Source: Candidatus Auribacterota bacterium | GTDB lineage: Bacteria > Auribacterota > UBA6266 | Reading direction: 5' to 3' | DNA length: 7,871 nt | Assembly (NCBI GenBank): GCA_023136205.1 | Contig: JAGLRQ010000113.1 | Span: forward strand, 1 to 7,871 | Notes under the pieces: model-generated | Databases searched by the model: none | The model's input: the letters and a program-made list of their open reading frames with translations, nothing else | What the model was told of the DNA's origin: nothing | In this document: piece by piece, positions 1 to 6,809 of the stretch | How the letters are laid out: each line of letters opens with the position of its first letter | Position numbering within the stretch: position 1 is the stretch's first letter | Program-made: the position numbers and the translations under genes

Positions 1-720
1 TCAAAAGAAATCAATCTTCCGTTTTTTAAGAGTTTAATCGAAAAACTTCCTTTTGTCACGGTTAAGTCCGCTGTTTCTATGGATGGTAAAATAGCGGCAA
101 AAACAGGAGATTCTAAATGGATTTCTTCAATTGAATCAAGAAAATACGGCCATTTATTAAGGAAAGAGGCGGATGCGGTTCTTACCGGGATTAATACTGT
201 AATCAAAGATGACCCCTTGTTTACCGTAAGACATGTTAAAAGTGCAAAGGATATTATAAGAGTAATTGTTGATACAAATTGCCGTTTGCCTTTGGAAAGC
301 AATATTGTGCGCAAGCGGCCGGAATTGACTTTGGTTGCTGTCGGGAAAGATATTGCAAAAACAAAAATCAAAAGATTGAAAGATCTTGGGCTGGAAGTCC
401 TGGAGGTTGATAGGGATAACAGCGGGAAGATCAACCTGAAAAAATTGCTCAAAATACTTTCAGCCAGGGGTATTAATAATATTCTCTGCGAATCCGGAGG
501 TTCTTTGACAGCATCTCTCTTTAAGAACAAGCTGGTTGACCGCATCGTGTTTTTTATATCCCCAATGATTATTGGGGGCAAAGATGCTCCTACAGCGGTG
601 GAAGGCAACGGGGTGAAGAAAATCGATTCCGCCGTAAAAATAGAAAACACAAAGATGAAAAAATCAGGGGGAGATTTTATGATTACCGGTGATGTTAACA
701 CGGAATGGAGGAATTTTTAA
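1..720 (+). CDS. ribD: Riboflavin biosynthesis protein RibD, C-terminal 5-amino-6-(5-phosphoribosylamino)uracil reductase domain; 5'-truncated by the window edge
   Basis: Frame 1 is open from base 1 (SKEINLPFFKSLIEKLPFVTVKSAVSMDGKIA...), so the ATG at 79 is internal. The PFVT-K-x-A-x-S-x-DGKIA motif, the SR..GH.LR...DAVL.G..TV..DDP.FTVR block and the CE.GG.L..SL block match the RibD reductase domain layout. Stop TAA at 718-720. Riboflavin synthase follows directly. Confidence 0.85.
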   Translation, partial: SKEINLPFFKSLIEKLPFVTVKSAVSMDGKIAAKTGDSKWISSIESRKYGHLLRKEADAVLTGINTVIKDDPLFTVRHVKSAKDIIRVIVDTNCRLPLESNIVRKRPELTLVAVGKDIAKTKIKRLKDLGLEVLEVDRDNSGKINLKKLLKILSARGINNILCESGGSLTASLFKNKLVDRIVFFISPMIIGGKDAPTAVEGNGVKKIDSAVKIENTKMKKSGGDFMITGDVNTEWRNF

Positions 721-722
721 GA

Positions 723-1358
723 ATGTTTACCGGGATAATAGAGTCTGTTGGCGTTATTTTAAGAATTGGAAAAAAATCAGGGAATCTGGAAATTGAAATA
801 GAGGCTTTGAATTTCCTTGATGATGTCGGGATTGGCGACAGTATATCTGTAGATGGAATCTGTTTAAGCGTTTGCAGTAAAACGGGTGAGTCTTTTTGCG
901 CAAACCTTCTTGCTGAAACCGTAAAAAGATCTACATTTGATTCGGCATGCGCAGGCCGAAAGGTAAACCTGGAAAAATCTTTGAAATCCGGATCGCGTTT
1001 CTCAGGGCACATAGTTACGGGACACGTTGACGAAACGGGAGAAATTCTGGAAGCAAAAAATTATTCCGGAGATATGGAGTTAAAAATAAAAATCCGTCCG
1101 GAGACTGTAAAATATATTGTGGAGAAAGGTTCTGTTGCTGTAAACGGTGTTAGCTTAACAGTGGTAAATGAGGGGAAAGATTATTTTACGGTTCGGCTGA
1201 TTCCTTTGACAGCGGGAAAAACGAATTTAGATAAAGTTCGAAAGGGTAACAAGGTAAACATAGAAGCCGATATTCTTGCTAAATATGCCGCTAAAGCATC
1301 CGGCAGGAATAAACCATCTAAAATAACCCTCAAGTTTCTCAAAGAAAAAGGTTTTTAA
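723..1358 (+). CDS. ribE: Riboflavin synthase (alpha chain)
   Basis: The canonical N-terminus MFTGIIE begins at ATG 723, with GGAGG at 708-712 about 10 nt upstream. The track start at 705 only adds MEEFLR. The duplicated lumazine-binding repeat layout is present (GDSISVDGICLSV... and GSVAVNGVSLTV...). It can be laid alongside E. coli riboflavin synthase from memory (GHxxxGHV, LIPxT, VNIExD). Confidence 0.9.
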   Translation: MFTGIIESVGVILRIGKKSGNLEIEIEALNFLDDVGIGDSISVDGICLSVCSKTGESFCANLLAETVKRSTFDSACAGRKVNLEKSLKSGSRFSGHIVTGHVDETGEILEAKNYSGDMELKIKIRPETVKYIVEKGSVAVNGVSLTVVNEGKDYFTVRLIPLTAGKTNLDKVRKGNKVNIEADILAKYAAKASGRNKPSKITLKFLKEKGF

Positions 1359-1375
1359 TAAAAAAGGGCCCGTTA

Positions 1376-2224
1376 GTGTACCGCTTTGTAAAATCTTGCA
1401 TTGTATTTTTAATAGTTTTTCATGGAGTTTTTTTCTTTTCATCCTTTTCCCGCTCCTCGGATGATTTAAGAATTGTATGTCTTTCTCCCGCCGCAACAGA
1501 AATATTATTTGATCTGGGTGCGGATAAGTGGCTTGCGGGAATTACAAATGAGTGTGATTATCCTCCCGCGACAAAAGGTATCCCGAAAGTCGGAACCTTT
1601 TCGAATCCTTCCGTTGAATATATTCTCGAAAAGAATCCGGATATAGTAATAACTGACGGGCTCGAACAGCAGATCATGGCTTATAATCTGCGGAAATTCG
1701 GGATAAAAACCCTGACTATTTTTCCATCGGATTTTGAAGGCCTGTTTGACGCGTATATTAAAATCGGAGATATATGCGGACTTAAAAGGGAAGCCCTTGA
1801 AAAGGTAAGGTTAATGAAAAATGATATTGGCCGGGTTCTTAAAAAAGTTAAACATCTTAAAAAAAAGCCTCAAGTATTTGTTGAGATCTGGAGTAAACCT
1901 TTGATAACAGCAGCAAAAGGTTCACACATAGATGAAGTTTTAAGGTTAGCAGGAGGAATTAATATTGCCTATAATTGCCCCCGTCCTTACAGTAGAGTCA
2001 GCCCCGAGCTTGTTATAATTTCTAATCCTGATATAATTGTTCTCGCCTATAAAGATGAAAGTAATATCGGTTTGAGGGAAGGCTGGCAGAATATTAATGC
2101 TGTTAAAAAGGGGTTTGTCTGCAATGACATCAATCCTGATTTTCTTGTAAGAGCCGGGCCCAGACTGATTGAGGGTCTGGAAAAACTGCGTAAACTTATA
2201 GAAAAATGGGATATGCAAAATTGA
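1376..2224 (+). CDS. btuF: Periplasmic substrate-binding protein of a BtuF/FecB-type (TroA-like cluster A) ABC importer; most resembles cobalamin-binding BtuF
   Basis: GTG start with AAGGG 7 nt upstream and a hydrophobic signal peptide. RIVCLSPAATEILFDLGA..LAGIT..CDYPP, KP.VFVEIWSKPLITAAKGSHIDEVLRLAGG.N, SPE.VI..NPDIIV and R.GPRLIEGLE..R match the BtuF layout as I recall it from E. coli. Aromatic residues (VGTF, RPYSRVS) sit where E. coli BtuF has its corrin-stacking Trp residues. Substrate assignment is an inference; an iron-siderophore or heme substrate is not excluded. Confidence 0.72.
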   Translation: MYRFVKSCIVFLIVFHGVFFFSSFSRSSDDLRIVCLSPAATEILFDLGADKWLAGITNECDYPPATKGIPKVGTFSNPSVEYILEKNPDIVITDGLEQQIMAYNLRKFGIKTLTIFPSDFEGLFDAYIKIGDICGLKREALEKVRLMKNDIGRVLKKVKHLKKKPQVFVEIWSKPLITAAKGSHIDEVLRLAGGINIAYNCPRPYSRVSPELVIISNPDIIVLAYKDESNIGLREGWQNINAVKKGFVCNDINPDFLVRAGPRLIEGLEKLRKLIEKWDMQN

Positions 2225-3201
2225 AGAAAATAACAGTGATATTATTAGTTGCTCTTGTAACAGCGGGTTTGTTCATGACATCCCTTCTTGTGGGCCCCGC
2301 GGATATTAATATTGGTAATATTTTTGATTATTTTTGCGGGAAATATAACCCGGTTATTCACCTGAGGTTTATGAGAGCCTGTATGGCAGTGATATCCGCT
2401 GCCGGCCTTTCAGCAGCCGGGGTATTTTTGCAGGGGTTGTTGCGAAATCCTCTTGCCGGCCCGTATATCCTCGGCATATCCGCCGGCTCAGCAATCGGCG
2501 CGGTAGGTGCAATTTGCTGCGGGCTCGGCACAGCTTTTATATTGCTTCCAGTACCTATGGTATGCGCGTTTATTGGCGCAATCATTACAATAATTGTTGT
2601 TTACAGGTTAGCTCTTAAAGACGGAAATCTGTCTGTTCAGAATCTAATACTTGCCGGAATTGCAGTTAATTCTCTACTTTCCAGCGTATTGCTTTTTGCA
2701 ATATACTCTTCAAAAAATGAAGCGATAAACGGCATAATCTGGTGGCTGCTCGGAAGTTTACAGGTTTTTGATATTAGGATAGTTTTGTTTTCCGGGGGTA
2801 TTGTTTCGGCTTCTATTTTACTTGCTATCCCTTTAACAAAGGAATTAAATGCTGTTTCCATAGGTGATGACCTGGCAACATATGTCGGGATAAAAGTTGA
2901 ATGGATTAAAACCATTTTCTTTGTTCTTTCAGGAATTATGACAGCTGCTGTTGTGTCCAGTGTTGGAATGATCGGGTTTGTCGGACTTGTTATTCCTCAT
3001 ATAACAAGGAAGTTGTTCGGCCCTGATATCAGGGTTCTTTTACCGGCATCTGTAGTAATCGGTTCAGGATTTCTGCTTATTGCCGACATGCTTTGTAGAA
3101 TTCTCTTTATTCCGGCCGAATTGCCAATAGGAATTGTAACATCTCTGGTAGGGGCGCCGTTTTTTATTTTTATCCTGGTCATCACGAGGAAAGGTTCATG
3201 A
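2206..3201 (+). CDS. FecCD/BtuC-family ABC transporter permease (iron-chelate/cobalamin uptake type)
   Basis: 331 aa, highly hydrophobic and multi-spanning, with Gly/Ala-rich helices typical of FecCD permeases (LRNPLAGPYILGISAGSAIGA, GMIGFVGLVIPHI.R, LP.GIVTSL.GAPFFI.IL). Overlaps the PBP stop by 19 nt. An alternative TTG start at 2221 would give a TTGA-type overlap. The end overlaps the ATPase start (ATGA at 3198-3201). Confidence 0.85.
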   Translation: MGYAKLKKITVILLVALVTAGLFMTSLLVGPADINIGNIFDYFCGKYNPVIHLRFMRACMAVISAAGLSAAGVFLQGLLRNPLAGPYILGISAGSAIGAVGAICCGLGTAFILLPVPMVCAFIGAIITIIVVYRLALKDGNLSVQNLILAGIAVNSLLSSVLLFAIYSSKNEAINGIIWWLLGSLQVFDIRIVLFSGGIVSASILLAIPLTKELNAVSIGDDLATYVGIKVEWIKTIFFVLSGIMTAAVVSSVGMIGFVGLVIPHITRKLFGPDIRVLLPASVVIGSGFLLIADMLCRILFIPAELPIGIVTSLVGAPFFIFILVITRKGS

Positions 3202-3965
3202 AAAATAATATTCTTGAATTAAAAGATGTAACGGCGGGATATGGTTCCAAAGAGGTTCTTAAAAACATTTCCTTCTTCGTAAAAGAAGGGTCTTTTACCG
3301 GTATAATCGGGCCAAACGGTTCGGGAAAATCAACTCTTGTTAAAACTCTGGGGAACTTTTTAAAACCAGACAGGGGAATCATTTATTACCGCGAAACCGA
3401 TGTCAGGAATATAACTCATAAAGAATATGCGAAGAAAATCACTGTAGTTCCTCAGGAAACAAAAACTGTTTTTGACTATACTGTCAGGGATTTTGTAACT
3501 ATGGGCAGGTATCCATATACGGGATTCTGGGGCACACTGTCAAAAGAAGACACAAAAGAAATCGAAGAAGTTCTATTTACAACTGGGCTTAATAAGTGTT
3601 GCGCGAAAAACATTAATGAAATGAGCGGGGGAGAAAAGCAGATGGTTTTTCTCGCAAGAGCCCTCTGTCAAAAAACTTCTCTGATAGTCCTTGATGAGCC
3701 GCTAACCTTTCTTGATATTAAACATCAAAAAATAATCATACACATCCTTGAAAAGTTCAACAAAGAAAAAGCCCTTACAGTACTGATGGTTGTACATGAT
3801 ATAAATACAGTTTTGAAACACTGTACCGATACAATAATTCTGAATGAAGGAAGTGTTTACGCTTCGGGAAACACAGAGGCAACAGTAAACAAAGAAACAA
3901 TCCGCGAGATATTTGAAACAGAAGTTGAATTTGTTAAATGCGGAGACAAAAACTTATTTTTCTGA
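3198..3965 (+). CDS. ABC transporter ATP-binding protein, BtuD/FepC/FhuC family
   Basis: Walker A GPNGSGKST, signature MSGGEKQ, Walker B LIVLDEP and H-loop VVHDIN. AGGAAAGG RBS upstream. ATGA start/stop overlap with the permease. Confidence 0.9.
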   Translation: MKNNILELKDVTAGYGSKEVLKNISFFVKEGSFTGIIGPNGSGKSTLVKTLGNFLKPDRGIIYYRETDVRNITHKEYAKKITVVPQETKTVFDYTVRDFVTMGRYPYTGFWGTLSKEDTKEIEEVLFTTGLNKCCAKNINEMSGGEKQMVFLARALCQKTSLIVLDEPLTFLDIKHQKIIIHILEKFNKEKALTVLMVVHDINTVLKHCTDTIILNEGSVYASGNTEATVNKETIREIFETEVEFVKCGDKNLFF

Positions 3966-3971
3966 TCATGT

Positions 3972-4631
3972 CTATTGTTTTATCTCAAAAACAATATTAG
4001 TGTTAAACCCTATTTCAGATTGGCCTATTTCTTTTGGAAATTTTGGAAAGAGTTTCGAAGCTTCTTTTAATACTGCTATAGCGGCGGGGGAAAATACTTC
4101 GTCAGTTGTTCTAATTACCTCAATAAAAGTTACTCTTCCTTTTTTGTTTAAATAAAAGAGTATTGTTACTTCTCCTGATACAAGCTCTCGTTTTTTTGCT
4201 TCTTCAGGAAAGTAATCTAAGGTAATTTCTGCTATAATACTATTCAATTGTTTTTGGTACTGTCTAACAAGTACAATCTGTGATGCAAATTCTTTTTTGG
4301 CTTTTTCAAGGGTTTTTCTTGATTCTTCTTTTTCAACTTCTTTTTCAGGCTGAGGTTTAATGATTTTTTTTGCCTGGGCTTTTTTTATCTGTTCCTTCTT
4401 TTTATCCTTGTTTTTTACATGAACAGAGGATGTTATTTTTGGTATTTTGATTTGCTCGGGCTGAAGCTCCGGAAATTGCGCGTAATAAAGAAGAACTTCA
4501 AGGTATTTATCCTTTTTGTTCTTAGATGCAAGCATTCTTAAAGTCGGCGATGCGCCCAGTACTATCAGGTGAATCGAGATCGAAATAAAAAATGAAAGCA
4601 ATAATAATCTATTTCTGAAAAAAGCTGCCAT
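3972..4631 (-). CDS. tonB: TonB-family energy transducer (N-terminal anchor with SxxxH motif, Lys/Glu-rich linker, TonB_C domain)
   Basis: The anchor RLLLLSFFISISIHLIVLG carries S-I-S-I-H, matching the E. coli TonB S-V-C-I-H (SxxxH) motif. The C-terminus YFPEEAKKRELVSGEVTILFYLNKKGRVTFIEVIRTTDEVFSPAAIAVLKEASKLFPKFP fits the TonB_C pattern (YP..A....G.V.v.F.i...G.v........s.....aA..a......P.P). I prefer the ATG at 4631 (purine-rich AGAGAGA upstream) over the track's GTG at 4703, which lacks any SD. That start would add a 24-aa non-TonB-like extension through a GC-rich hairpin. Confidence 0.8.
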   Translation of the reverse strand: MAAFFRNRLLLLSFFISISIHLIVLGASPTLRMLASKNKKDKYLEVLLYYAQFPELQPEQIKIPKITSSVHVKNKDKKKEQIKKAQAKKIIKPQPEKEVEKEESRKTLEKAKKEFASQIVLVRQYQKQLNSIIAEITLDYFPEEAKKRELVSGEVTILFYLNKKGRVTFIEVIRTTDEVFSPAAIAVLKEASKLFPKFPKEIGQSEIGFNTNIVFEIKQ

Positions 4632-4803
4632 AATTTCTCTCTTTGTGAATCGTATAAAAGCCGTATGTAGTCCCCTCAGGGGAGGCTGCGCTACGCTTCG
4701 CACTATCTTGTGAATTGATTAAATACTACACAACAAGTGTGCTATTAACAAGTGTCAAATATATTAATATCGAAATTTTAATAAAATTTAACTGAATAAA
4801 TTC

Positions 4804-4831
4804 TTGACATAACAGAAAAAGAGTATAAAAT
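4804..4831 (+). promoter_or_regulatory. Sigma70-like promoter of the riboswitch-controlled operon (TTGACA-16 nt-TAAAAT)
   Basis: Perfect -35 TTGACA at 4804-4809. -10 TAAAAT at 4826-4831 after a 16-nt spacer. It lies about 30 nt upstream of the riboswitch aptamer. Confidence 0.6.
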
Positions 4832-4861
4832 GATGCCGACTTTTGTTCTTTAATTTTTAGT

Positions 4862-4960
4862 TATGGTTTTCAGTGTCAGGGAAATCCCGTGAGAGCCGGG
4901 AGCTGGGCCGCAGCTGTAATCGGTGTAAAACCGTAAGCCAGAATACCTGTCTGAAAAAAA
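4862..4960 (+). promoter_or_regulatory. Cobalamin (B12) riboswitch aptamer, Rfam RF00174-like
   Basis: B12 box AAGCCAGAATACCTGTCT at 4935-4952 matches the consensus rAGYCMGgAgaCCkGCcd at 15 of 18 positions. Core cAGGGAAatCCCGTGAGAGCCGGGAGCTGGGCCGCAGCTGTAA at 4877-4919 parallels the conserved AGGGAA...GGTG.(A)A.CC...GC.GC..CTGTAA layout. Closing helices are TTTTCAG(4867-4873)/CTGAAAA(4951-4957) and CAGG(4877-4880)/CCTG(4946-4949). There is a peripheral hairpin CGGT-gtaaa-ACCG at 4921-4933. Boundaries are approximate. Confidence 0.88.
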
Positions 4961-4994
4961 TTTAATCTTCTCCGGAACCGAGAAAAGACGAAGG

Positions 4995-5028
4995 CCCGTT
5001 CTCACAAAAAGGAGAAACGGGTTTTTTT
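4995..5028 (+). terminator. Intrinsic terminator forming the riboswitch expression platform (transcription attenuation)
   Basis: Stem CCCGTTCTC (4995-5003) pairs with GAGAAACGGG (5012-5021) with one bulged A, followed by T7 at 5022-5028. It lies between the aptamer and the RBS (AAGGAG 5053-5058) of the ORF starting at 5066. Confidence 0.8.
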
Positions 5029-5065
5029 GTTGTCTGAAACCGGAGGCAACGAAAGGAGCAGTTAG

Positions 5066-5983
5066 ATGTGTAAGTTTTTATTGAGCAGTTTTTTGGTTTT
5101 GTTGTGTGTATCGCCTCTTGCTTTTTCAGAGGTAGCTTCATGGACTGAGGATTTCAGCAGCCCTTCCGGATGGACATACGAAGGGGAAACAGGGACTCAG
5201 CTTTTTACCCATAATGGGACTCAGGGCAATGTTAACGCGCTATGGAAATCAGATAAGAGCACCAGCCGCTATTACAAGAGCTTGGGCGGAAGTATAACAG
5301 AATCAAGTTCTTTCTCTTTCGGGTGTGATTTACAGATAAACGATCTGGTACAGAACCCTTGGGGTATGCAAATTGGTTTTGGCCTTTTTAATACCGCTAA
5401 TACCGGTGATAACAGGGTAGGTTATTATGACGGAGACTGGGGTTACCATAGTGGAAATACTATAAATACATTTGAATTAAGTTATTTCCCTTATCAAGAC
5501 GGATGGGGAGGGCCATGGTTTGGAGGAACCATAATGCCCGAGGTTGATAATGAGCCTGGCGAACCCGGGAATCAGGTCAAGATTGTTTATTCCGGCGAAA
5601 CTGTCACATATAAAACTGTGGGATTTGACGAAGGGGCACTCCCTTACGATGCTTGGCTGTACACAGAAGCTACATACGACGGAAGCTCTAAAGAAGCGCT
5701 TTTTAGCATATATACCAACCAAGAAAAAACAACACTTCTATCTGTAAACGGACAGATAGCTCAGTCTTCCTTTATTTATACCGGAGACGCTTTCTCGGTA
5801 GATGCTTTAGGGTTTTTTAGTTATTACGATTATCTGGACAGTACCCCTGTTTCTCCTTCACTTAGTGGTGTTGGCATTTTTGATAATGCTTACTTTAATG
5901 TGGTTCCGGAACCTTCCAGTTGGATATGCTTTACCTTAGGGCTGGTTTCACTATGGTGTTTTAAAAGAAAGAAAACCGCATGA
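5066..5983 (+). CDS. Secreted PEP-CTERM-anchored protein of unknown function, aromatic/Gly-rich; a beta-sandwich fold is a guess
   Basis: AAGGAG RBS 7 nt upstream. Signal peptide MCKFLLSSFLVLLCVSPLAFS|EV. The C-terminal sorting signal VPEP-SSWICFTLGLVSLWCF-KRKK (nt 5903-5980) is a textbook PEP-CTERM: motif, TM helix, basic tail. The mature region is rich in W/Y/G (GDWGYHSG, DGWGGPWFGG). It starts W.EDF and ends IFDNAYF, reminiscent of LamG/concanavalin-like modules. I recognise no characterised family. Confidence 0.8.
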   Translation: MCKFLLSSFLVLLCVSPLAFSEVASWTEDFSSPSGWTYEGETGTQLFTHNGTQGNVNALWKSDKSTSRYYKSLGGSITESSSFSFGCDLQINDLVQNPWGMQIGFGLFNTANTGDNRVGYYDGDWGYHSGNTINTFELSYFPYQDGWGGPWFGGTIMPEVDNEPGEPGNQVKIVYSGETVTYKTVGFDEGALPYDAWLYTEATYDGSSKEALFSIYTNQEKTTLLSVNGQIAQSSFIYTGDAFSVDALGFFSYYDYLDSTPVSPSLSGVGIFDNAYFNVVPEPSSWICFTLGLVSLWCFKRKKTA

Positions 5984-6771
5984 AAAAAAATATCCCGTTA
6001 GAGATTAAAGAAAAAAATTGTGTTTTATCATCTCTAACGGGATTTACATTAATTGAATTACTGGTTGTTATCGCGATAGCCTCTCTCATGATATCTTTTC
6101 TCCTGCCCGCGTTGCTGGAGGCAAAAGAAACAGCCAAAAAATGTGTCTGTATTTCTAATTTAAAACAGTTATATCTTGCGACAAGCCTTTACCTTCAGGA
6201 TAACGATGATGTTTTTTTCCCGCATTACGTCAAAAAAGGAGCAGATAGGTTGTGGTGGTTTGGCTATGAACCAAATTTCAATACCGGTATACCTGAAGGA
6301 AGCAGAGAAATTTATCTGACAAAGTCTTTTTTATACCCCTACATAAGAAACATAGGGGGTATCGAAAAATGCCCTTCATTTAACTATAATGACCCCAAAT
6401 GGAAACCAAAATTTAAGTGTGCTACATATGGTTACGGTTATAATTCCCTGGGCCTCCAGGAGAAGAAGACCAGTGAAATAAAGGATTTAGCAAACACAGT
6501 ACTTTTTGCGGACTGCGCTCAGATTAATACATTCCAGGCACCGGCATCACCAACTAACCCCATGATTGAAGAGTTTTATTATATAAGCCCTTATCCGTTT
6601 GAAAAGCTGATTCACTTCAGGCACAATGGTTTGGCAAATGTCCTTTTCTGTGACGGCCACATTGACGCTATGAGACCTTTTCCCGGAACTGAAGATCCAA
6701 AAGGAAAGCAAATCGGACACATAGTCGGCAGAATCAACCCACCCGCGGATTTCTCCATGTTTAATTTATAG
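5980..6771 (+). CDS. Prepilin-type N-terminal cleavage/methylation domain protein with H-X9-DG motif (DUF1559-type pseudopilin-like protein)
   Basis: Leader MKKNIPLEIKEKNCVLSSLTG, then FTLIELLVVIAIASLM: a class III signal with G|F cleavage and Glu at +5. The NLKQLYLATSLYLQDNDD block is typical of DUF1559. HNGLANVLFCDG at nt 6622-6657 is an exact H-X9-DG. Its ATG overlaps the upstream stop (ATGA at 5980-5983), implying translational coupling. Confidence 0.85.
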   Translation: MKKNIPLEIKEKNCVLSSLTGFTLIELLVVIAIASLMISFLLPALLEAKETAKKCVCISNLKQLYLATSLYLQDNDDVFFPHYVKKGADRLWWFGYEPNFNTGIPEGSREIYLTKSFLYPYIRNIGGIEKCPSFNYNDPKWKPKFKCATYGYGYNSLGLQEKKTSEIKDLANTVLFADCAQINTFQAPASPTNPMIEEFYYISPYPFEKLIHFRHNGLANVLFCDGHIDAMRPFPGTEDPKGKQIGHIVGRINPPADFSMFNL

Positions 6772-6780
6772 TAAAAATTC

Positions 6781-6809
6781 TTGACATACATTTCCTCTTT
6801 ATTTAAACT
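6781..6809 (+). promoter_or_regulatory. Sigma70-like promoter upstream of rpsU (TTGACA-17 nt-TAAACT)
   Basis: Perfect -35 TTGACA at 6781-6786 and -10-like TAAACT at 6804-6809 after a 17-nt spacer. It shares the 14-mer AAATTCTTGACATA with the riboswitch promoter. Confidence 0.5.

Follow-up and report, generated by a model that had tools for sequence, protein, structure and literature searches.

We examined a contig of 7,871 nucleotides (nt) from Auribacterota ("Aureabacteria"), a candidate phylum of the Planctomycetes-Verrucomicrobia-Chlamydiae (PVC) group. This whole stretch of DNA (JAGLRQ010000113.1) is called the window below. Our subject is a gene for a pilin-like H-X9-DG protein of 263 amino acids (aa) (5980-6771, + strand), recognised from its open reading frame (ORF), prepilin models and an AlphaFold2 model. 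It follows a gene for a secreted partner protein of 305 aa (5066-5983, +), and the elements stand in the order promoter-like site, RF00174 cobalamin riboswitch, terminator hairpin, ribosome-binding site, partner gene and, joined to it by an ATGA overlap, pilin-like gene. The class III signal, the exact H-X9-DG motif and the ATGA overlap from which the original prediction set out are all present. The vitamin B12 control that it proposed also holds up, as a promoter-like site, the riboswitch (4847-4968) and a terminator hairpin lie ahead of both genes. Judged by its sequence, the locus appears to be a B12-scavenging locus with a new conserved component, for which we propose a mechanism.

The promoter-like site (TTGACA, 16-nt spacer, TAAAAT; 4804-4831, +) agrees with the consensus at 11 of 12 positions, a consensus match only, and ends 16 nt 5' of the aptamer. 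The aptamer (4847-4968, +) scores 47.5 bits against RF00174 (gathering score 31.5; E = 1.1e-9), and a model made from verrucomicrobial examples only recovers it too (35.8 bits, E = 8e-8). It is of the short form, having 5 nt in place of the 59-nt peripheral segment of the RF00174 consensus. Cobalamins with a small upper ligand tend to be preferred by short aptamers of this type, and hydroxocobalamin or methylcobalamin may therefore be what the operon senses. Orthologous aptamers are present in the related loci L001, L004 and L003, the last of which (1311-1407) scores best with the AdoCbl-II model RF01689. Downstream of the aptamer is a terminator-like hairpin, CCCGTTCTC ... GAGAAACGGG, followed by seven T (4995-5028, +; hairpin 4995-5021), recognised from fold and sequence. 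The hairpin appears in both the minimum-free-energy and the centroid folds of 4840-5070; a simple terminator scan missed it because the stem is bulged. Together, hairpin and T-run are likely the expression platform. An AAGGAG ribosome-binding site follows at 5053-5058, 5' of the 305-aa gene. Aptamer and platform are thus upstream of the pilin-like gene on its own strand, with no further terminator ahead of that gene.

The ATG of the pilin-like gene is the sole start codon 5' of the pilin motif. The upstream ORF (5066-5983) stops at the TGA of 5981-5983, giving a 4-nt ATGA stop/start overlap (5980-5983, +) that is also found in L001. With only this one start codon available, the leader peptide is 21 aa long (5980-6042, +) and ends with G21 at position -1. 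The unusual length of this leader, which had been pointed out before, is real in the window and is a local peculiarity, for leader length is not conserved: it is 10 aa in an ortholog 88% identical and ranges from 3 to more than 20 aa in homologs, many of which have 3-5. The prepilin signal is G/FTLIELLVV at residues 21-30 (slash, predicted cleavage site), with F+1, E+5 and P+22, and leads from the mature N-terminus, FTLIE..., into a long pilin-type alpha-1 helix (residues 22-74; 6043-6201, +). Glutamate 26 is invariant among 75 subfamily sequences. Both models of the N-methylation site are passed, Pfam N_methyl (PF07963) with 21.4 against a cut-off of 21.2 and TIGR02532 with 22.3 against 16.3, and a prepilin peptidase is predicted from this signal to cleave the leader.

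The AlphaFold2 model of the protein has a mean predicted local distance difference test score (pLDDT) of 93.9. Its alpha-1 helix spans residues 24-74 (51 residues), beyond which lies a beta-rich globular domain of about 190 residues. When a profile of the subfamily was compared with the PDB, the N-terminal ~65 residues matched solved pilins and GspG (E = 6e-12 to 2e-8). The protein is nevertheless not a GspG equivalog: it scores 30.9 against the 88.85 of TIGR01710, and aligns to positions 2-57 of that 134-position model only. Two cysteines, C57 (nearly invariant) and C131 (invariant), form a pattern that would be compatible with a disulfide and an extracytoplasmic location.

Toward the C-terminus, the protein carries an exact H-X9-DG motif, HNGLANVLFCDG (6622-6657, +; residues 215-226), within a block HFRH...DGH in which H212, F213, R214, H215 and D225 are invariant or nearly so in the 75-sequence alignment. 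TIGR04294, the H-X9-DG model, aligns to residues 212-227 with 16.4 bits, below its cut-off of 19, and DUF1559 (PF07596) likewise falls short (19.1, cut-off 23.3). Thus the profile search that had been suggested for this protein bears out its N-methylation site and misses its H-X9-DG assignment in the window, although 62 of 75 relatives match TIGR04294 (E <= 0.01, best E = 8e-8). PF07596 matches 56 of 75 (E <= 1e-3, best E = 3e-12), and PF07963 and TIGR02532 match 72 and 74 of the 75. Because so many homologs match where the window protein itself stays below the cut-offs, it is by sequence a divergent member of the DUF1559/H-X9-DG superfamily. Proteins of this superfamily occur as numerous paralogs in PVC bacteria.

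Thousands of homologs came up in a protein search, among which the verrucomicrobial ones are 45-57% identical over about 90% of the length. Several invariant blocks lie outside the description of the generic family, among them W92-x-F-G-x-E, K144-F and G-Y-G-x-N155, as well as Q-I-N-T-F-Q-A-P-A-S (181-190), N-P-M-I-E-E-F-Y (193-200) and H-F-R-H...D-G-H. The signature formed by QINTFQAPAS (6520-6549) and NPMIEEFY (6556-6579), which occupies 6520-6579 (+) and consists of invariant or nearly invariant columns, yielded the two peptide patterns by which we retrieved the subfamily, Q[VI]NT[FW]QxPAS and [NH]PM[LI]EE[FW]Y. In a collection of one genome per species (185,579 species), these patterns found 576 relatives. 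We kept the best 80 of the 576 loci, each from a different genome assembly (80 assemblies), and surveyed 75 loci outside Auribacterota. Most of the best 80 come from Verrucomicrobiota; a few bins bear the label Planctomycetota or Kiritimatiellia, and two are assigned to Akkermansia muciniphila. Members of the subfamily are about 245-265 aa long.

The pairing of riboswitch and gene is kept in three diverged Auribacterota lineages, whose pilin-like proteins share 86, 68 and 69% identity with that of the window, and RF00174 lies just upstream in three of three verrucomicrobial loci that were fetched independently. Among 60 further loci with 3-kb flanks, 37 have RF00174 at the Rfam gathering score. 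Rescanning 12 riboswitch-negative loci at a permissive E-value added one match, just below the gathering score. We also built a custom covariance model from 29 RF00174 hits, which recovered every left-out match to the cobalamin-riboswitch models, including that of the window, and detected a riboswitch at 11 of 15 additional loci. In total, 49 of the 75 loci outside Auribacterota have a cobalamin riboswitch upstream on the same strand. As an internal control, we looked at the downstream halves, which are of equal length, and at the antisense strands of these 75 loci, and neither contains any. With every hit in the upstream position and none elsewhere, the link is hardly a chance one. It had been proposed that riboswitches beside DUF1559 genes be compared with what paralog abundance alone would give, and the association far exceeds that expectation. 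An RNA element of another kind occurs at the verrucomicrobial locus L034, where two Acido-Lenti-1 RNA motifs (RF01687; - strand, 2386-2430 and 2622-2666) lie just downstream of the pilin-like gene.

The partner protein of the window (5066-5983) has a Sec signal, a beta-sandwich resembling ConA and legume lectins, and a PEP-CTERM tail (VVPEPSSW...KRKK). The tail passes TIGR02595 (18.1, cut-off 16) and narrowly misses Pfam PF07589 (19.7, cut-off 20.7), with the VVPEPSSWICFTLGLVSLWCFKRKK motif visible. Its AlphaFold2 model (mean pLDDT 76) is similar by Foldseek to legume lectins (E ~ 3e-8, TM 0.5-0.65); the binding domain contains no Pfam domain, and a sequence profile of the partner has no match in the PDB. 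We regard the partner as the variable component of the locus and as a candidate corrinoid binder.

A census of the sampled loci, made with profiles built in this analysis, showed that the gene adjoining the pilin-like gene nearly always encodes a secreted protein, the kind of which varies. It belongs to the ConA-like partner family of the window in about 35 loci, to DUF4465 with a PEP-CTERM tail in 7, to a family of ~450 aa in 8, and is another unannotated PEP-CTERM protein in at least 13. The DUF4465 neighbors match a B12-bound crystal structure (9HMU, E = 5e-45), and B12 binding has been shown experimentally for DUF4465 proteins from Coraliomargarita, Haloferula and a planctomycete (PMC13398666). 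The ~450-aa family (alignment A6) gave one weak match to an SGL beta-propeller (25.9, cut-off 26.3) and is without a relative in the PDB; the idea of a BtuG-like propeller is at this stage a lead only. The partner is thus interchangeable between lineages while the pilin-like protein stays constant. This variety also narrows one element of the original prediction, which had paired a pilin-like subunit with an exosortase substrate: a PEP-CTERM tail is present in about 36 of the 84 adjacent proteins, and the adjacent proteins come from several families that show no detectable relation, DUF4465 among them.

The proposed translational coupling to the upstream gene recurs across the sample. A 4-nt stop/start overlap is possible in 33 of 74 loci and involves the sole available start in 15; a gap of at most 30 nt separates the genes in 30 more, bringing the loci with overlap or short gap to 63 of 74. 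The gene order is flipped in L012, L026 and L027, where the pilin-like gene comes first after the riboswitch.

Many proteins of the partner family and the ~450-aa family have no PEP-CTERM tail and end instead in a conserved region of ~100 aa closing with '...G-T-G...R-x-F-Y-R-V...' (L009 4715-5980, L020-L023, L036, L063-L065, L077, L080 and others). Pfam finds nothing in the single protein with this 'FYRV' tail that was scanned, L009 4715-5980. Since both tails occur within the same binder families, the pattern suggests that PEP-CTERM and 'FYRV' are two interchangeable sorting or anchoring modules. We also considered whether the partner could be a divergent DUF4465 protein and set this aside at the level of sequences and profiles: a profile comparison (A3 versus A5) aligns the PEP-CTERM tail only, and Pfam and the PDB profile return nothing. 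Both are beta-sandwiches, so they may yet be very remotely related. In the cyanobacterium Oscillatoria amoena (P0134), the ConA-like partner family is represented by a full-length protein that has a PEP-CTERM tail, so this family extends beyond the PVC group.

Genes related to transport are also found near the operon. In the window, ribD, ribE and genes for a BtuF-like binding protein, a FecCD permease and an ATP-binding cassette (ABC) ATPase occupy 79-3965 (+ strand). The last three (1376-3965, +; profile matches) have overlapping stop and start codons and lie 3' of the two riboflavin genes, ribD and ribE, and the whole arrangement is syntenic in all Auribacterota loci. They would make a candidate inner-membrane corrinoid importer of uncertain substrate, the BtuF-like protein scoring 89.5 against the BtuF equivalog cut-off of 234. 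Between them and the riboswitch operon, and divergent from the latter, is a gene for a protein with a TonB C-terminal domain (3972-4703, -; TonB_C 30.2, cut-off 24.6), which keeps the same position in L001, L003 and L004. No TonB-dependent receptor is found among the genes of the window. Among neighboring ORFs of at least 650 aa at the related loci, none of the eight scanned is a TonB-dependent receptor, a scan that left out six opposite-strand ORFs of ~600 aa or more. Neither the window nor the annotated or profile-matched flanks of related loci contain visible gsp or pil machinery genes.

Elsewhere, about 18 loci have a gene for a DUF6580 membrane protein in the vicinity, about 10 have one for a BtuF-like protein, and two encode an OprB-type porin. 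DUF6580 is a polytopic membrane protein of ~200 aa (L013 6843-7448). Its gene lies downstream of the pilin-like gene in L029, L030, L031, L046 and L055 and divergently upstream in L018, L019, L038, L039, L049 and L084. Its gene context makes it a candidate new transporter of corrinoids in the inner membrane. Neither the single sequence nor a 10-sequence profile found a relative in the PDB, NCBIfam gave no match, and no paper in the literature that we searched mentions the family; an assignment to the BtuM or ECF-S type of B12 transporter was dropped for want of such a relative in PDB or NCBIfam. The OprB-family porin is the last gene of two riboswitch-headed operons (L029 4404-5567, L030 4321-5511), both in the order ~450-aa family, pilin-like protein, DUF6580, OprB, and may provide an outer-membrane entry route independent of TonB. 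In the two Akkermansia muciniphila bins (L057 and L060), the subfamily gene follows DUF6580-like and BtuF-like genes, and a partner-like fragment lies at the locus edge. No riboswitch is present within the fetched 3 kb of these two loci, whose operon probably starts farther upstream. At two unrelated loci, the pilin-like unit is closely followed, on the same strand, by thioredoxin/AhpC-like genes (L012 8310-9578, L067 3745-4731); their products might act in corrinoid reduction or disulfide handling.

This gene context suggests that the B12 import machinery has a hitherto undescribed part, and the pilin-like protein very probably has a role in B12 acquisition. We further think it fairly likely that it is the conserved core of a riboswitch-controlled corrinoid-scavenging module of PVC bacteria and relays corrinoid to an importer. 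The module occurs in Auribacterota, in Verrucomicrobiota and at a few loci that bear the label Planctomycetota or Kiritimatiellia. To go by its elements, the riboswitch would permit read-through of the terminator under B12 scarcity, and the partner and the pilin-like protein would then be co-produced from their overlapping genes. The partner would capture corrinoid at the cell surface. A prepilin peptidase would remove the leader of the pilin-like protein, whose alpha-1 helix would sit in the inner membrane or in a short pseudopilus of the type II secretion system (T2SS) kind, with the ~190-aa head in the periplasm. There, the head would bind corrinoid or the loaded partner and hand over to an inner-membrane importer, which may be the BtuFCD-like set in the window and DUF6580 or BtuF-linked systems elsewhere. 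Because one conserved pilin-like protein pairs with several partner families of no detectable relation, it would recognise a constant element, either ligand or importer, rather than the variable fold of the binder. The property that the partners share is expected to be their ligand.

Several observations weigh against this reading of a corrinoid relay. Even with the custom model, 26 of the 75 loci have no detectable riboswitch within 3 kb; at about 10 of these 26 the operon extends past the fetched DNA, and the others include a distinct arrangement in which the DUF6580 gene is divergent. Position -1 is occupied by Ala rather than Gly in about half of the homologs. The globular domain does not show a pseudopilin globular fold: Foldseek found no match below E = 1 in the PDB, known B12 binders included, and a sequence profile matched PDB entries in the helix region alone. 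Binding of corrinoid by this domain is a proposal to which we give an even chance. As to the importer, DUF6580 has no assigned function and no solved relative, the BtuF-like protein of the window misses its equivalog cut-off, which leaves the substrate of the BtuFCD-like genes uncertain, and these genes have no riboswitch of their own in an RF00174 scan of the window, nor do they lie behind the aptamer at 4847-4968. Finally, the window encodes no T2SS or type IV pilus machinery, prepilin peptidase, exosortase or outer-membrane channel.

The original prediction had suggested that, should the pilin-like protein present or retrieve its partner or ligand across the periplasm or outer membrane, this would be a new uptake principle. 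Pilus-mediated retrieval of this sort is one possible reading, but the data can also be accommodated by a membrane-anchored periplasmic relay or by a secretion adaptor. As an adaptor, the protein would be a cargo-specific T2SS pseudopilin that exports or displays the co-encoded binder and takes no part in B12 handling, which we judge to be unlikely. Its GspG-like N-terminus with F1, E5 and P22 agrees with that role, as does the gene's constant position beside a gene for a secreted protein, often with translational coupling. There is also a parallel in a verrucomicrobial PulG-like paralog, one of 67 in its genome, that lies in an alginate cluster whose lyases may be T2SS cargo (PMC13274419). 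However, an adaptor that recognises cargo should vary along with it, and here the cargo would comprise several families of no detectable relation, with two kinds of C-terminal tail, yet the pilin-like protein remains 45-57% identical from Auribacterota to Verrucomicrobiota. Nor would export need the inner-membrane components, DUF6580 and BtuF, that accompany the gene. Furthermore, PEP-CTERM proteins are expected to be sorted by an exosortase.

We give a low probability to the possibility that the subunits form a pilus or pseudopilus spanning the outer membrane, by which the binder or B12 is presented or retrieved and which thereby stands in for the TonB-dependent BtuB. The operons examined contain no secretin, assembly ATPase or platform gene, and a head of ~190 aa is large for a major subunit, although the residues for pilin assembly are conserved. 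In favour of such a route, no TonB-dependent receptor is found in the window or among the large neighboring ORFs scanned, a survey that is not exhaustive; on the other side, a TonB gene adjoins the operon in Auribacterota, and OprB-type porin genes in two operons suggest a conventional outer-membrane route. A precedent exists in Planctomycetes, whose crateriform structures bear pili-like fibers to which dextran binds before its uptake (PMC5394234). That the pilin-like protein assembles into a fiber at all is predicted only tentatively, and we consider it doubtful. In a wider form of the same idea, to which we attach little probability, PVC bacteria would have a pseudopilus-based B12 import in place of BtuB, with DUF1559 paralogs as substrate-specific uptake subunits in a SusD-like role; the head would pick up corrinoid from interchangeable binders and carry it across the periplasm, perhaps also through the outer membrane.

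Two further readings are contradicted by the data. That a generic DUF1559 gene came to lie in a B12 operon by chance, with no B12-specific role, is highly improbable: the family is indeed rich in paralogs in PVC bacteria (67 PulG-like ones in one genome; PMC13274419) and the window protein stays under the curated family cut-offs, but 49 of 75 loci in other phyla share the riboswitch, every hit is in a regulatory position, and the subfamily, from 80 loci of 80 assemblies, has signature motifs of its own and neighbors that are repeatedly B12-related. Just as improbable is that the riboswitch governs the first gene only and the pilin-like gene is expressed independently. Weak promoter-like matches do occur within the coding regions, though shuffled sequence has them just as often; against this reading, a 4-nt overlap has no space for a terminator or promoter, the next promoter-like site (6781-6809) lies past the pilin-like gene, and in L012, L026 and L027 the pilin-like gene is itself first after the riboswitch.

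The subfamily shares a prepilin N-terminus, a C-terminal H-X9-DG block and a restriction to PVC bacteria with the DUF1559 (PF07596, 'SBP_bac_10')/TIGR04294 proteins of Planctomycetota, Verrucomicrobiota and Lentisphaerota. It differs from generic DUF1559 proteins in being tightly conserved, in its own signature and in its link to cobalamin riboswitches. In the literature searched, we found no published function for the parent family. Like GspG/PulG and type IV pilins, the pilin-like protein has a class III signal, F1, E5 and P22, an alpha-1 helix of ~50 residues and a homologous N-terminal region of ~65 residues. Unlike them, it has a globular domain of ~190 aa without a match, its gene stands outside any gsp or pil operon and is regulated by a vitamin riboswitch, and the -1 Ala is found in about half of the subfamily.

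Among known B12 systems, the closest parallel is with the btu loci of Bacteroides, in which riboswitch control extends to diverse accessory B12 binders, BtuG, BtuH and BtuJ1/J2 (the latter being DUF4465), that accompany transport genes (PMC13398666). Both have variable extracellular binders under a riboswitch, and DUF4465 is common to both. However, the Bacteroides loci combine the TonB-dependent BtuB with lipoprotein binders, whereas here the constant part is the pilin-like protein and the binders carry a PEP-CTERM or 'FYRV' tail; no BtuB was seen among the large ORFs scanned in PVC operons. The pilin-like protein has no homology to any Btu protein. Its role is possibly analogous to that of BtuF, the periplasmic carrier that brings corrinoid to an inner-membrane importer, but the two share neither sequence nor fold similarity, and the pilin-like protein would be anchored in the membrane or borne on a fiber by its pilin helix. 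It is not a simple replacement of BtuF, because BtuF-like genes adjoin it in some loci.

Pilin-like parts have been linked to nutrients before. A verrucomicrobium with 67 PulG-like paralogs has one of them within a gene cluster for alginate utilization (PMC13274419), and to call the present locus the first functional context of a DUF1559 protein therefore goes too far. This case and the dextran-binding fibers resemble the present one in having a pilin-like part in a nutrient-specific locus or in substrate capture. In the polysaccharide cases, no defined regulator or ligand is attached to the pilin-like gene, whereas here the riboswitch and neighbors with proven B12 binding define the ligand class. 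Within the literature searched, no paper ties DUF1559, prepilins, pseudopilins or PEP-CTERM to cobalamin or B12, and the paper on DUF4465 (PMC13398666) makes no mention of pilin-like neighbors.

The subfamily ties a branch of the uncharacterized DUF1559/H-X9-DG family to a ligand class (corrinoids), a regulator (the riboswitch) and neighbors with proven B12 binding. The function of the family is hence testable: an ortholog is present in genome bins of Akkermansia muciniphila, a host that would be usable if the gene is confirmed in cultured strains. Furthermore, a conserved component is added to B12 acquisition, which has hitherto been described around BtuB, BtuF, BtuCD and the accessory lipoproteins of Bacteroides. 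The ConA-like partner family, the ~450-aa family and the further PEP-CTERM proteins are new candidates for B12 binders. If the pseudopilus route were true, DUF1559/H-X9-DG paralogs would be general substrate-specific uptake subunits, comparable to SusD in Bacteroidota.

Downstream of the operon, 3' of the pilin-like gene and ahead of rpsU, the window has its second promoter-like site (6781-6809). Identical bases precede the -35 hexamers of both promoter-like sites, ATTCTTGACATA being present at 4800-4812 (riboswitch) and at 6777-6789 (rpsU), and this may be a lineage-typical promoter context. In two Auribacterota lineages (L003 3782-4747 and L004 10168-11142), a gene of the AP_endonuc_2 family (PF01261) that is absent from the window follows directly after rpsU, downstream of the operon. 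CbiR of Akkermansia, a cobamide-remodeling enzyme, falls in the AP_endonuc_2 superfamily (PMC7733943).

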